Assembly (NCBI GenBank): GCA_018610125.1
Contig: JAHEOI010000372.1
Location: 1-49,381, forward strand
Direction: 5' to 3'
Source of the DNA: Verrucomicrobiota bacterium
Lineage (GTDB): Bacteria; Verrucomicrobiota; Verrucomicrobiia; Limisphaerales; JAHEOI01
DNA length: 49,381 nucleotides
Shown: in pieces, positions 13,554-16,704 of the stretch
Numbering within the stretch: the first letter of the stretch is position 1
Layout of the letters: each line of letters begins with the position of its first letter
Position numbers and translations under genes: made by a program
Notes under the pieces: model-generated
Told to the model about the DNA's origin: nothing
The model's input: the letters and a program-made list of their open reading frames with translations, nothing else
Database searches by the model: none

Positions 13554-13682
13554 TCAATCACCGCTGCAGTTCTCCAAGATATGACCGCAGCGGCGACAGA
13601 CCCGTTTGCACTTAATTTCGACAATGTCTTCGCTACCACAAACGTAGCAGACCTCAATCTCTTGAGAATCGCCCGATGTCAT
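13554..13682 (-). CDS. 42-aa Cys-rich (zinc-ribbon-like) micro-protein, translationally coupled to the upstream sigma-like gene
   Basis: My own translation is MTSGDSQEIEVCYVCGSEDIVEIKCKRVCRRCGHILENCSGD. It has CxxC and CxxC pairs 13 residues apart plus two further Cys. Its ATG (13682-13680) overlaps the TGA (13681-13679) of the upstream gene as ATGA. It is below the 60-aa cut-off of the ORF track. Confidence 0.45.
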   Translation of the reverse strand: MTSGDSQEIEVCYVCGSEDIVEIKCKRVCRRCGHILENCSGD

Positions 13683-14758
13683 GCTTCAGCCGACGCATGC
13701 GTGGCGAATTGCTGCAAGTGCTTTTTGATGTCGCTTATCTTGCGCGACACCTCCCGAGACTCGCGGCCCTCGAGCACGGCAACTTCTTCCGCCCCGAAGC
13801 CTTCCAGGAAATGCAGCTCGAAAACGGCCCTGCCGAGCTCCGACCAGCTCTGTGCCACCGATTTCATGAGGCCCAGGAACTCGCCACGCGAAACCAACGC
13901 ATCGATCGGTGACGAAAGCGACCATTCATCCCCTGGAAGCCATTCTCCGATCAACAAGCGTTCCGGCTCAAAATTTATGCCGCGGAGCACCGCCTTCTTT
14001 TCCTCATCGTCATAGGGCTCACCGGAGCTTTCGCTATTTCCGATGCCGGATGAGCTTGACTCGCTGTTGCTGCGCTCCTTTGCTGATGCCGCCTTGCCTT
14101 CGAATTGGGCGATCCGTTTTTTCAAATCGTGCCGTAAGATTGCGTAAAACCAGAGGCGATAATTTTGTTCGGGCGGTTTTTGGTCCGCCGTCAGAAAGAC
14201 CTGCTTGGCTACTTCGTCGGTGACCATCCGCGGATCGATCGCATTCCGGGGAATCTCACCCAAAAGCTCCGCTCGCCATAGCTGCCGCCATGCATACCGT
14301 ACGAGGCGGGAATAATGTTGTTGAAACATCTCACTGACAACCTCCGGAAGCGATTGCGACTCCCGCGAGCGCGCCTGGGGCCGTGCGGCAAATTGGGTCG
14401 GCTCTTCCCGTCCGATCGTTTCCTCACGCTGTCGTCGGTTCCATTGGTCCTCTTTCCGTAAAGATGCCTTTAAGTGCTCCAACTCCCGCAGCAATGCCTT
14501 GACGGCCTCATCGAAGGCCGGCATTGGGTCGTCTTCTGTTTTATCGGAGTGCAGGGTATTGGAGGGGAGTCGAAGCGTCAGCGAGGCCGTATAGAGCGGC
14601 TTTTTCGGATTCTTTTCCAGATGGGTATGCAGATGAATCGCGTCCGGTGGAAAGCGTTGTAAATGTTTTTCGAGCTTACTGATTTTCTCTCGCAGCTTCT
14701 CTTCAAGCTGAGCATAACGCTCAACATTTTTTGTGACCAAATCCCAGGTAAACGTCAT
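13679..14758 (-). CDS. Fusion protein: N-terminal HPF/RaiA (ribosomal S30EA / sigma-54 modulation) -like domain plus C-terminal ECF-like sigma-70 regions 2 and 4
   Basis: The N-terminus ISKLEKHLQRFPPDAIHLHTHLEKNPKKPLYTASLTLRLPSNTLHSDKTEDDPMPAFDEAVKALLRELEHLKASLRK follows the HPF/YfiA pattern. Region-2-like: FQQHYSRLVRYAWRQL...VTDEVAKQVFL...WFYAILRHDLKKRI. Region-4-like: LGRAVFELHFLEGFGAEEVAVLEGRESREVSRKISDIKKHLQQF. Start taken at ATG 14758 (MTFTWDL). Confidence 0.7.
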   Translation of the reverse strand: MTFTWDLVTKNVERYAQLEEKLREKISKLEKHLQRFPPDAIHLHTHLEKNPKKPLYTASLTLRLPSNTLHSDKTEDDPMPAFDEAVKALLRELEHLKASLRKEDQWNRRQREETIGREEPTQFAARPQARSRESQSLPEVVSEMFQQHYSRLVRYAWRQLWRAELLGEIPRNAIDPRMVTDEVAKQVFLTADQKPPEQNYRLWFYAILRHDLKKRIAQFEGKAASAKERSNSESSSSGIGNSESSGEPYDDEEKKAVLRGINFEPERLLIGEWLPGDEWSLSSPIDALVSRGEFLGLMKSVAQSWSELGRAVFELHFLEGFGAEEVAVLEGRESREVSRKISDIKKHLQQFATHASAEA

Positions 14759-14783
14759 AGCTACCTCCCTCTTGTAACAAGGG

Positions 14784-14811
14784 AGAGGGAGGGCGTGACA
14801 GCCCTCCCTCT
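14784..14811 (-). terminator. Strong hairpin downstream of htrA (possible terminator; no clear U tract)
   Basis: AGAGGGAGGGC-gtgaca-GCCCTCCCTCT, an 11-bp perfect stem located 29 nt after the htrA stop. Confidence 0.45.
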
Positions 14812-14839
14812 GATTCAACTCCTCATTTCCGTTTTGATT

Positions 14840-16318
14840 CTAACCATTTCTTCCCGCATTGACCACCAGGATCTTATACGCACCTCGGCTCCAAACACGG
14901 AGTAATACTCGATCTCCCTCGATCTGCTGTGTCAGCTTCATCGCTTCCTCGGCGCTGCCGACCTTTTCACGATTGATGGTCAGGATCACGTCGCCCGGTC
15001 GCAAACCGGCCTCACGGGCGGGCGAATCGGCTTCAACATCACGCACGAGAGCGCCTTCGATATCGGACGGGATATTAAACTGCTCCCGCCACTGACGGGT
15101 GATGTCGGTCACCGCAACACCGGTAAGCACCTTGCTCTCTTGATCGCCACCACCCTGGCGTTGCCGTTGCATCTGCGCGATATTATCCGGACGGCGGGTG
15201 AGGTCGACCGTCAGCTTCTTTTGAGCCTCGTCGCGAATAACAGTCACCGTCGCTTCCGAGGTCGGAGGCGTTTGCGCCACGAGCAACCGGAGGTGCCGGC
15301 TATCCTCAACCGGCTTCCCATTGAACTTGATAATCACATCCTCCTCTTTAAGGCCGGCCTTTGCTGCGGGCGTATCCGGTACGACCCGGCTTACCAAGGC
15401 ACCCTCCTGGCTCTCGAGCCCATAATATTTCACATGCTCCGGCTCGAGATCCTGCGGAAAAACACCGAGATAGCCACGCTTGACTTCTCCGTGCTCAATG
15501 ATCTGCTTCATGACATTGCGAGCCATGTCGATCGGCACGGAAAATCCGACGCCTTGACTCCCCCCGCTTTGGCTCAAGATGAAGGTGTTGATCCCGATCA
15601 ATCTGCCTTTGATGTCAACAAGCGCTCCACCCGAGTTGCCGGGATTAATGGCGGCGTCTGTCTGGATGAAGTTCTCGTAGGCGGCAATCCGTTGCCTGAA
15701 TCCGCGGCCGATGGCACTGACCATTCCCATGGTGGCTGTCTGTCCAAGCCCGAACGGATTCCCGATTGCCAGTACGAGGTCGCCCTTCTTCACCTGGTCA
15801 CTATCAGTAATGGTGATTGCCGGCAGGTTGGAGGCATCGATCTTGATAACAGCCAGATCAGTCGCCGGGTCGCCGCCGACCACTTCCGCCGTGTACTGCT
15901 TTTCCTCCTCAGCCAACGTGACCTCAATCTCATCGGCGTTTTGGACGACATGGTTGTTCGTCAAGATGTAACCGTCCTTGGTGACGATCACTCCCGAGCC
16001 CAAGCTCGATCGTTTTCGCTGCTCCGGTATGTCACCGAATTGGTCCCCAAAGAATCGCCGAAACTTCTCCATCAAAGGCGAGCGCTCCATTTTTTTGGTG
16101 CTCGAGATATTGACGACGCTCTTTGAGGCTTTCTCCACAATAGGGGCAAACGAGTTTGCCCTCGTCGAGCGGTCAATCGGCTCATTGTTAATCTTAAAAT
16201 TGGGGGCCGCCCCTTCGATACTGACCGGCCACGGCGATACGATACCGAGACTGGCAAGCACCAGCGCGCCTACCGCCATTGACCCAAAATACCTCGAGGC
16301 TATCTGCTTCATTCTCAT
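14840..16318 (-). CDS. htrA: HtrA/DegP/DegQ-family periplasmic serine endoprotease with two PDZ domains
   Basis: Trypsin-like triad context (TNNHVV, DLAVIKI, GNSGGALV) and two PDZ segments. Start placed at ATG 16318 (MRMKQIASRYF, signal-like). Confidence 0.92.
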   Translation of the reverse strand: MRMKQIASRYFGSMAVGALVLASLGIVSPWPVSIEGAAPNFKINNEPIDRSTRANSFAPIVEKASKSVVNISSTKKMERSPLMEKFRRFFGDQFGDIPEQRKRSSLGSGVIVTKDGYILTNNHVVQNADEIEVTLAEEEKQYTAEVVGGDPATDLAVIKIDASNLPAITITDSDQVKKGDLVLAIGNPFGLGQTATMGMVSAIGRGFRQRIAAYENFIQTDAAINPGNSGGALVDIKGRLIGINTFILSQSGGSQGVGFSVPIDMARNVMKQIIEHGEVKRGYLGVFPQDLEPEHVKYYGLESQEGALVSRVVPDTPAAKAGLKEEDVIIKFNGKPVEDSRHLRLLVAQTPPTSEATVTVIRDEAQKKLTVDLTRRPDNIAQMQRQRQGGGDQESKVLTGVAVTDITRQWREQFNIPSDIEGALVRDVEADSPAREAGLRPGDVILTINREKVGSAEEAMKLTQQIEGDRVLLRVWSRGAYKILVVNAGRNG

Positions 16319-16704
16319 ACATTGCTCCTTTCGATTCCTTAACCAATGCCGGACTGCCGTTCGCACGCCCGACCGTTTCTTCCTTAATGCTTATCACGCT
16401 CAAAACCGTCACTCGGTTACCGCTTTGAGCGTTCGTCTGCTTTGACAATGGACCCAACCTCTCTATTCAATCAAAAGAAGTGCCCACTCCCTCTAAATCG
16501 TATCAATCCCCATACCAACTCACGAGAACAGCTTCATCTCGCACTCGGATTTGGCTATAACCTCCAGTCCAGGCAGGACTTACGTCTCAAATCAATCTCG
16601 CCGCCGACCCAACCAACCGCCGTCACCACAGCGTGCCACGGCCGGCGATGCGCCAAAACGGCACACCTAAGAGTCATTGTGACGCGTTCATCTTTTTGGA
16701 AAAA

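Follow-up and report, generated by a model that had tools for sequence, protein, structure and literature searches.

An HPF/RaiA-fold domain joined to a divergent ECF-type sigma module in a family of proteostasis-associated genes

The window studied here is a stretch of 49,381 nucleotides from a Verrucomicrobiota bacterium (GenBank assembly GCA_018610125.1, contig JAHEOI010000372.1, positions 1 to 49,381). At 13679..14758, on the minus strand, it carries a gene encoding 359 amino acids plus a stop, whose product joins a domain like the ribosome hibernation promoting factor (HPF, RaiA or S30AE) to a module resembling the extracytoplasmic function (ECF) sigma factors. Sequence and predicted structure identify a genuine HPF/RaiA-fold domain in the N-terminal module and, in the C-terminal one, a divergent sigma of the sigma-70 group 4 (ECF-type), made of region 2 (sigma2), an acidic linker and region 4 (sigma4). 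This kind of fusion has already been noted and is uncharacterised, and the window gene is a divergent member of it. Our best, though tentative, reading of the protein, at less than even chances, is a sigma factor for stress that its HPF domain couples to ribosomes.

Domain architecture

The first-pass annotation of the window had proposed that one gene unites an HPF/S30AE-fold domain with sigma2, a Ser/acidic linker and sigma4 of an ECF-like sigma. Our analysis bears this out, with a frame that is conserved across relatives, and the boundaries drawn between the segments were accurate. The open reading frame (ORF) runs uninterrupted through 359 codons from an ATG at 14758-14756 to a TGA at 13681-13679 (minus strand, like all segments below). 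The ATG at 14758 is the likely start, as judged from the GGGAGG Shine-Dalgarno sequence 7 nt 5' of it and from homologues beginning at the same methionine (start pattern MT[LF]xWNxV); for the same reasons, a longer alternative starting at the TTG at 14818 is unlikely.

The HPF/RaiA domain (aa 1-100, 14459..14758) is recognized by Pfam Ribosomal_S30AE (PF02482) over aa 9-100 and profile positions 5-87 of 88, with 41.1 bits against a gathering cut-off (GA) of 23.7 (E 3.1e-10). AlphaFold2 (AF2) folds it in the order beta-alpha-beta-beta-beta-alpha (strands at 4-10, 42-49, 56-63 and 68-75, helices at 16-32 and 78-100), with a predicted local distance difference test score (pLDDT) of 90-97. Foldseek superposes the model on solved HPF/YfiA structures with TM-scores of 0.84-0.89, root-mean-square deviations (rmsd) of 1.5-2.3 Å and identities of 15-27% (4hei_A at TM 0.89 and rmsd 1.5 Å, 8uu7_w at TM 0.84), and the family profile matches the solved HPF 8uu4_w with E 1.4e-7. 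The domain represents a divergent HPF subfamily, at a BLOSUM distance of about 0.8 from both E. coli HPF and YfiA. It scores 34.1 bits with the NCBIfam yfiA equivalog TIGR00741, under the cut-off of 40.9, and the HPF hallmark AID..dKL.RQL..K appears as AFD.AVKALLREL..LK, both helices being rich in basic residues. Pfam gave no match in the window protein to the dimerisation domain of long HPF (Ribosom_S30AE_C, PF16321-type).

The HPF domain is followed by a basic helix (aa 103-117) and a linker (aa 118-136), together at 14351..14458. In the family alignment these have the motifs LRxExxWKRKxRR and RFAxxP...GPQ, respectively, and the tryptophan, F123 and P127 are found at frequencies of at least 90%. 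AF2 places a helix at aa 103-117 and gives a pLDDT of 54-57 over aa 110-130. The divergent sigma2-like domain comes next (aa 137-236, 14051..14350; delimited with AF2, Foldseek and hhalign). Its model consists of three long helices with a loop insertion (pLDDT 94-98), and its conserved residues are DEV.RQA, KP, W203, L207 and EL.RR. The Ser/acidic linker between sigma2 and sigma4 (aa 237-283, 13910..14050) has a pLDDT of 48-62, family motifs GYDAExPL and LEP, and a conservation of 0.42. Relatives that consist of the sigma half alone carry it too (motif YQPDE..LED..PD), and hence it belongs to the sigma lineage; a 307-aa alphaproteobacterial short form of the fusion is devoid of it. The last segment is the helix-turn-helix domain of sigma4 (aa 284-359, 13682..13909), modelled as four helices (284-358, pLDDT 91-98). 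An RxR motif in its recognition helix is conserved in the family and lines up with R176/R178 of sigmaE by our own residue mapping, the hhalign alignment to sigmaE stopping at residue 175, just short of these two arginines.

Profile searches had been proposed to confirm both domains. They did so at once for HPF, which is above its cut-off, whereas sigma similarity in the single sequence remained below threshold and was detected by family profiles and by structure. Pfam Sigma70_r4_2 matches aa 310-348 of the window protein with 20.3 bits (GA 25.7), and 17 of 22 family members match it. The sigma70-ECF model TIGR02937 covers aa 143-350 (model positions 5-163 of 165) with 24.1 bits, under the cut-off of 42.9. 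When the family profile was compared with the PDB, it matched WhiG (E 3.5e-9), FliA (7.5e-6) and the ECF factors SigH, SigW and SigE (near 1e-3), as well as the sigma4 of SigD, the sigmas of the PDB giving E-values from 1e-3 to 3e-9. The profile of the C-terminal half aligned by hhalign with E. coli sigmaE over 141 columns from region 2 to region 4 (91.6% probability, E 8e-7), the sigma2 part of the match corresponding to sigmaE residues 35-97. Foldseek aligned this half to ECF sigma structures over 211-229 columns. For the entire window protein, AlphaFold with the family alignment gave a mean pLDDT of 84.

Family extent

Among 5.8 billion proteins, a cluster search recovered 85 clusters, of which about 70 are full-length (307-395 aa) at 28-43% identity; no other member that we found is more than 43% identical to the window protein. 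In total, the complete architecture is preserved in more than 100 protein clusters. An exhaustive HMMER search with the profile of the sigma half produced 414 representatives at E<=1e-10; the majority of its top matches start around residue 130 and are hence fusions. The scan of GTDB species representatives revealed 34 loci, mostly in metagenome-assembled genomes (MAGs) of Verrucomicrobiota (Opitutia, Udaeobacter, Chthoniobacterales). The relatives of the window protein lie in the Verrucomicrobiota radiation, the nearest being from a MAG labelled Omnitrophica. The short form is found in Rhodoplanes, Bradyrhizobium and Xanthobacteraceae. Finished replicons carry fusions as well, including the chromosome of Bradyrhizobium sp. 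BTAi1 (ABQ39622.1 / WP_012047507.1) and many complete plasmids of Beta- and Gammaproteobacteria, to which plasmid p3 of Roseomonas mucosa must be added. Relatives keep a single frame across the junction of the two halves, where separate genes, a stop or a frameshift would have pointed to a spurious fusion.

Some unusual proteins turned up in these searches. P0168 (530 aa) is an HPF-sigma fusion with an extra C-terminal region of about 185 aa, and in P0251 (1100 aa) the family profile matches six sigma4-like repeats in tandem. Fragments of the Bradyrhizobium short form (cluster P0081) are filed under Chiloscyllium punctatum (a shark), Staphylococcus epidermidis, Mammaliicoccus sciuri and Neisseria gonorrhoeae, and are most likely Bradyrhizobium contamination of those assemblies.

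HPF-only and sigma-only relatives

Both halves also exist as separate proteins. HPF-only proteins (114-143 aa) are 50-57% identical to the N-terminal domain of the window protein and, in a neighbor-joining tree of these domains, are nested within the clade of the fusions. Their genes follow htrA in 4 of 5 loci, as the fusion does in the window, and in two of these dnaJ comes next. Among the sigma-only genes, P0139 immediately precedes grpE, which it overlaps by 4 nt, and P0127 and P0165 come immediately after hsp20; no HPF-like sequence was found upstream of P0133. P0127 and P0139 exceed the TIGR02937 cut-off of 42.9 (44 and 53 bits), as do P0195, P0219 and P0243, which are more distant relatives, with 67-74 bits. 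One of the latter, P0243 (L042, 315-2207), has 18 nt downstream a gene for a baeRF_family10/Balon-like eRF1 homologue, a pair that we regard as a second, independent link of the sigma lineage to proteins of the ribosome A site and of hibernation. Another distant relative is followed by a 67-aa HxxxCxxC anti-sigma-like gene and a BON protein, one by Trx2, and one is preceded by BON and HdeD. Since HPF-only and sigma-only genes occupy such neighbourhoods, each half probably works on its own, and both belong to stress loci. The persistence of separate halves in the same neighbourhoods is a pattern typical of interacting modules.

Proteostasis neighbourhoods

Genomic context is the strongest functional clue for the family. 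The genes neighbouring the fusions were clustered and then annotated with Pfam. A proteostasis gene lies within four genes of the fusion in 10 of the 22 distinct loci outside the Alphaproteobacteria, which are mostly from Verrucomicrobiota: htrA in the window, hsp20 in L002, L004 and L011, clpB in L011, L013, L014 and L016, dnaJ in L005, L014 and L016, dnaK and grpE on either side of the fusion in L017, and grpE overlapping the fusion by 4 nt in L012. With an assumed dozen or so of these genes in a genome, a neighbour of this kind would be expected by chance in a few percent of the cases, a figure that we estimated and did not compute. In the Alphaproteobacteria (Rhodoplanes, Bradyrhizobium and Xanthobacteraceae), all seven loci (L023, L024, L027, L029, L031, L033 and L035) share one operon, with genes for a ClpP-like SDH protease, PsiE, Trx2, a ferritin-like protein, the fusion, Hsp20, Lon, MarC and KefB. 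The gene content of this operon resembles that of the heat-resistance island of Beta- and Gammaproteobacteria known as tLST (transmissible locus of stress tolerance).

Certain positions recur. Fusion and sigma-only genes alike immediately precede grpE, overlapping it by 4 nt (L012, L017, L038), in the place that hrcA has in many bacteria. Others lie downstream of hsp20 (L002, L004, P0127, L039), and the order of the window, htrA and then the family gene, is repeated in L022, L025, L026 and L028. The gene of the window does lie just downstream of htrA, as first annotated, on the same strand and 81 nt apart. The analogy with sigmaE-type envelope-stress modules that had been built on this position fared less well: the family genes have a conserved context of proteostasis and heat shock in general (hsp20, clpB, dnaK/J, grpE, lon, groESL, tLST), and no conserved anti-sigma gene of the RseA type was found beside the fusions across the family loci. 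The heat-shock operators CIRCE and HAIR were absent near family genes in all loci scanned.

Plasmids and stress-tolerance islands

Searches of plasmids by tblastn found distant fusions when the window protein was the query and no match with the alphaproteobacterial short form. On the conjugative plasmid NZ_CP071828.1 of Burkholderia anthina (L046), the fusion, annotated as 'sigma-28', has three hsp20 genes on one side and groES, groEL and dnaK on the other, in a mobile chaperone island that is flanked by an integrase and insertion sequences. On Roseomonas mucosa p3, it is flanked by hdeD and, at its opposite end, by a group made of two hsp20, marR, ftsH and an AAA gene of the ClpG-like type. 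The Roseomonas protein matches 285 plasmids, which come from Klebsiella, Enterobacter, Acinetobacter and E. coli. The match in an isolate of E. coli from beef is a 'hypothetical protein' (WP_023304019.1; L049, 11001-12146, plasmid NZ_CP061759.1) between hdeD-GI and trx-GI, and this is orf11 of the locus of heat resistance (LHR), or tLST. The literature on tLST lists orf11 as a gene of unknown function (PMC8290217). We found it in 152 of 5426 complete E. coli genomes.

Orf11 is very divergent: Pfam does not detect its HPF domain and finds its sigma4 only at E 0.014. The family alignment nevertheless matches it by hhalign from the HPF part through sigma4, over 296 columns (96.9% probability, E 1.4e-10). 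The gene thus resembles that of the window in its full-length homology and in its location in a proteostasis island (sHsp20, ClpK, HdeD, Trx, KefB, PsiE, HtpX, DegP), but it keeps a set place between hdeD-GI and trx-GI, the window gene being located after htrA. The latter is not in a tLST, the window containing no genes for sHsp20, ClpK, KefB or PsiE.

Relation to known systems

The first-pass annotation knew of no described HPF-sigma fusion. This no longer holds. A preprint of November 2025 ('The evolutionary lifecycle of ribosome hibernation factors', 10.1101/2025.11.04.686544) reports HPF-SigE chimeras, one of them on an E. coli plasmid, among divergent HPFs in which the dimerisation domain is missing and to which a Csp, SigE or CBS domain is fused; it adds that chimeras coexist with canonical HPF and are often near Balon. 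Databases also annotate both halves, and family members are already named 'HPF/RaiA family' or 'sigma24/RaiA' at NCBI and IMG. These HPF-SigE chimeras resemble the window protein in having an HPF N-terminal domain, no long-HPF dimerisation domain and a SigE-like part; they are scattered across phyla and varied in genomic location, including plasmids and stress loci, and are read as hibernation factors, with no experiment on the SigE type reported. In the part of its text that is accessible, the preprint does not describe the Verrucomicrobial clade, its association with heat shock or the sigma-only and HPF-only variants. In the literature that we searched, we did not find a systematic heat-shock and proteostasis context of the HPF-sigma family, sigma-only and HPF-only variants in the same positions, or profiles that explicitly link orf11 of tLST to the Verrucomicrobial and alphaproteobacterial clade.

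Three other systems invite comparison. ECF sigmas with extra domains share with the window protein a sigma2-sigma4 core plus an extension, which is C-terminal in ECF41, ECF42 and ECF44 (and SnoaL_2 in SigJ) and N-terminal in ECF121 (BldN), ECF36 (SigC) and ECF12 (SigR). The N-terminal extensions are, in the main text of the ECF reclassification (PMC7826278), short and not folded domains of the translation apparatus such as the HPF found here, and this text mentions no ECF group with an S30AE/HPF domain. The sigma core of the window protein, unlike those of these ECFs, is too divergent for the cut-offs of Sigma70_r2 or TIGR02937. Long HPF, as found in S. aureus, B. subtilis and Listeria, has the same layout of N-terminal HPF, flexible linker of about 30-35 aa and C-terminal module, and the window N-domain superposes on the HPF of Listeria and Vibrio with TM-scores of 0.84-0.89; the C-terminal module is however a sigma-like region of 220 aa instead of a dimerisation domain of about 60 aa. 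Long HPF is stress-induced in Firmicutes. Finally, PhyR also couples an ECF sigma-like domain with a second, signal-handling domain, and resembles the window protein weakly in profile comparisons, but its sigma-like domain is N-terminal, its receiver domain is C-terminal, and its partners are NepR and EcfG, none of which is seen in the case of the window protein.

Function of the fusion protein

If the protein is a stress sigma factor, its sigma module would bind the core of RNA polymerase and drive stress and proteostasis genes, probably including its own neighbours, and the clusters and islands would thereby be transcriptionally self-contained. The HPF module would stand in for the missing anti-sigma, as an on-board regulatory domain, and tie the availability of the sigma to ribosomes. 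Once translation stalls, for instance upon heat or starvation, HPF could dock in the decoding centre of vacant ribosomes, and this docking could either release or sequester the sigma. Both ideas of the first-pass annotation, a coupling of transcription to translational status and an anti-sigma-like domain acting in cis, may therefore hold. We favour a working sigma because the family genes have a regulator-like position, the sigma-only relatives fall in the ECF superfamily, W203, EL.RR and RxR are conserved, one distant sigma-only relative has an anti-sigma-like gene after it, and no conserved anti-sigma gene accompanies the fusions. We favour on-board regulation because ECFs without a cognate anti-sigma gene usually carry a fused regulatory extension, which is thought to act in cis, according to the ECF reclassification (PMC7826278). 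That ribosome occupancy is read out directly as transcription of chaperones and proteases is a bolder proposal, with circumstantial support, and we consider it rather unlikely. To our knowledge, a link at the protein level between translation status and transcription initiation has been demonstrated for no sigma factor.

Several results weigh against a stress sigma. Pfam Sigma70_r2 does not match the window protein and matches only one of 22 family members (E 0.009). AlphaFold gave no confident arrangement of the domains relative to each other, the predicted TM-score (pTM) being 0.56 with the long form and 0.44 with the short one. The recognition helix of sigma4 varies across the family at most of its base-contacting positions, and the window protein has KKHLQ at aa 345-349 (13709-13723, minus strand), where 80-90% of the long-form members have QxRLR; lacking two conserved arginines, it may bind DNA differently from the family norm. 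The HPF half is the most conserved, with a mean consensus frequency of 0.71 against 0.60 for sigma4 and 0.54 for sigma2. A de novo search for -35/-10 pairs (5-mer plus 4-mer, spacer of 14-20) in 34 upstream regions gave GC-rich top pairs that equalled those of shuffled sequences. The one recurrent pattern, TTGA(A/T)-N15-CCTAT, is sigma32/sigma70-like and not ECF-like; it is enriched, being present in 4 of 46 regions where shuffled sequences give 0.055, was selected once the data had been seen and covers few loci. In B. anthina, the sigma32-like version CCCTTGA(A/T)-N15-(C/T)(C/T)TAT precedes both hsp20 and the fusion gene, which suggests that the fusion may itself be a member of the heat-shock regulon. 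Finally, deletion of orf11 from E. coli MG1655 lacZ::LHR did not lower resistance to heat or chlorine (PMC8407380), so orf11 is, in E. coli at least, not an essential activator of its island.

Some of these results also count in favour of the strongest alternative. We ranked the explanations by how probable we think them, with the stress sigma first, then a hibernation factor, then a PhyR-like decoy and, far below, an artefact. As a chimeric HPF isoform, which we consider somewhat improbable, the protein would be a putative ribosome-binding factor that blocks the decoding centre of idle ribosomes under heat or other stress, with a sigma-derived tail in place of the dimerisation domain of long HPF. 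The tail would then serve for docking or oligomerisation, and might tether RNA polymerase or some other partner to hibernating ribosomes, but would not be a promoter-specificity factor. This agrees with the better conservation of the HPF domain, which contains every invariant residue, with a layout (N-domain, linker of about 35 aa, C-terminal module) that mirrors long HPF, with the lack of a phenotype for heat or chlorine upon deletion of orf11, and with the lack of a cognate promoter. It also agrees with the HPF-only variants, which keep their position between htrA and dnaJ, and with the baeRF_family10 gene that follows a sigma-only relative, operons of Balon containing Hsp20, DnaK/J, HdeD, RaiA and alternative sigma factors (PMC10901736). 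The preprint (10.1101/2025.11.04.686544) classes HPF-SigE chimeras as variants of hibernation factors. Yet, sigma-only relatives without HPF persist at these same loci, before grpE and after hsp20, which argues for a function of the sigma half itself. Furthermore, sigma2 and sigma4 are both retained with their core features, close relatives pass the sigma70-ECF model, and the dimerisation domain is missing.

The sigma-like half might instead act in the manner of PhyR, titrating an anti-sigma or another partner without binding RNA polymerase or DNA, while HPF controls its exposure. Two of 22 members, and also the B. anthina protein (25.6 and 20.1 bits, GA 27), have sub-threshold Pfam matches to PhyR_sigma-like and PhyR_sigma2, there are weak profile matches to PhyR in the PDB, and sigma2 is degenerate in sequence. 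The short form is found in Alphaproteobacteria, a class that employs the PhyR/NepR/EcfG system. The sigma structure that superposes best on the model, in which sigma2 and sigma4 adopt a closed pose, is that of EcfG bound to NepR (5uxx_C, TMt 0.62, against about 0.3 for forms bound to RNA polymerase). We give little weight to this resemblance because free ECF sigmas are often drawn closed by AlphaFold. A decoy is, besides, difficult to reconcile with the absence of a Response_reg receiver domain (Pfam) and of a conserved NepR-like small gene next to the fusions, with a main clade in Verrucomicrobiota, where the PhyR partner switch is not known, and with sigma-only relatives that pass the true sigma70-ECF model; we regard it as improbable. 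As for an artefact of assembly, sequencing or gene calling that would have joined adjacent hpf and sigma genes, the existence elsewhere of separate HPF-only (114-143 aa) and sigma-only (214-247 aa) genes might suggest it, but these were never found side by side, and a single frame that is preserved over its entire length in more than 70 clusters, with identities of 28-43%, and is present in finished replicons leaves it practically no chance.

An HPF-sigma fusion may surprise specialists of sigma factors or of ribosomes, even if it is not unprecedented. If the sigma half of the favoured stress sigma is active, the tLST of Klebsiella, Enterobacter and E. coli, the plasmid islands of Burkholderia and Roseomonas, and the Verrucomicrobial clusters would carry their own ribosome-wired transcription factor. 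This would account for the working of such islands once they are in new hosts, and would give a function to orf11 of tLST, which is still annotated as 'hypothetical'. If the protein is a hibernation factor instead, sigma domains would be recyclable as ribosome-associated modules. In either case, the question can be tested directly in cultured carriers, such as Bradyrhizobium sp. BTAi1, Rhodoplanes and LHR-bearing E. coli.

Other features of the locus

The upstream neighbour of the fusion, at 14840..16318 on the minus strand, is an htrA/degP-like serine protease gene (Trypsin_2 and two PDZ domains by Pfam). Its likely start is the ATG at 16318, which is preceded by an AAGGAG Shine-Dalgarno sequence; its longest ORF begins at 16366. 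On the other strand, the neighbours of the fusion are a Sel1-repeat gene and pheST.

The 81-nt spacer between htrA and the fusion (14759-14839) contains a GC-rich hairpin, GAGGGAGGGC-N6-GCCCTCCCTC (14784..14811, minus strand), whose 3' arm can alternatively pair with the Shine-Dalgarno region AGAGGGAGG (14764-14772). The spacer has a fold energy of -37.2 kcal/mol (z = -2.7), and its hairpin may be a terminator or attenuator of htrA or an element of translational control. We rejected an RNA thermometer, as the Shine-Dalgarno sequence is predicted in silico to stay paired from 20 to 55 C. A sigma70-like sequence, TGGTCA-N17-TAGAAT (14837..14865, minus strand), matches the consensus at 9 of 12 positions and overlaps the stop of htrA. 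It is a possible, if weak, candidate for a promoter of the fusion gene itself, the consensus scan giving 2 sites where 1.6 are expected.

Downstream, a 42-aa ORF (13554-13682, minus strand) has four Cys pairs in a zinc-ribbon pattern, MTSGDSQEIEVCYVCGSEDIVEIKCKRVCRRCGHILENCSGD. It was discarded as a candidate anti-sigma, being conserved in none of 35 related loci. Its ATG overlaps the TGA of the fusion gene (ATGA), which suggests that the two are translationally coupled.

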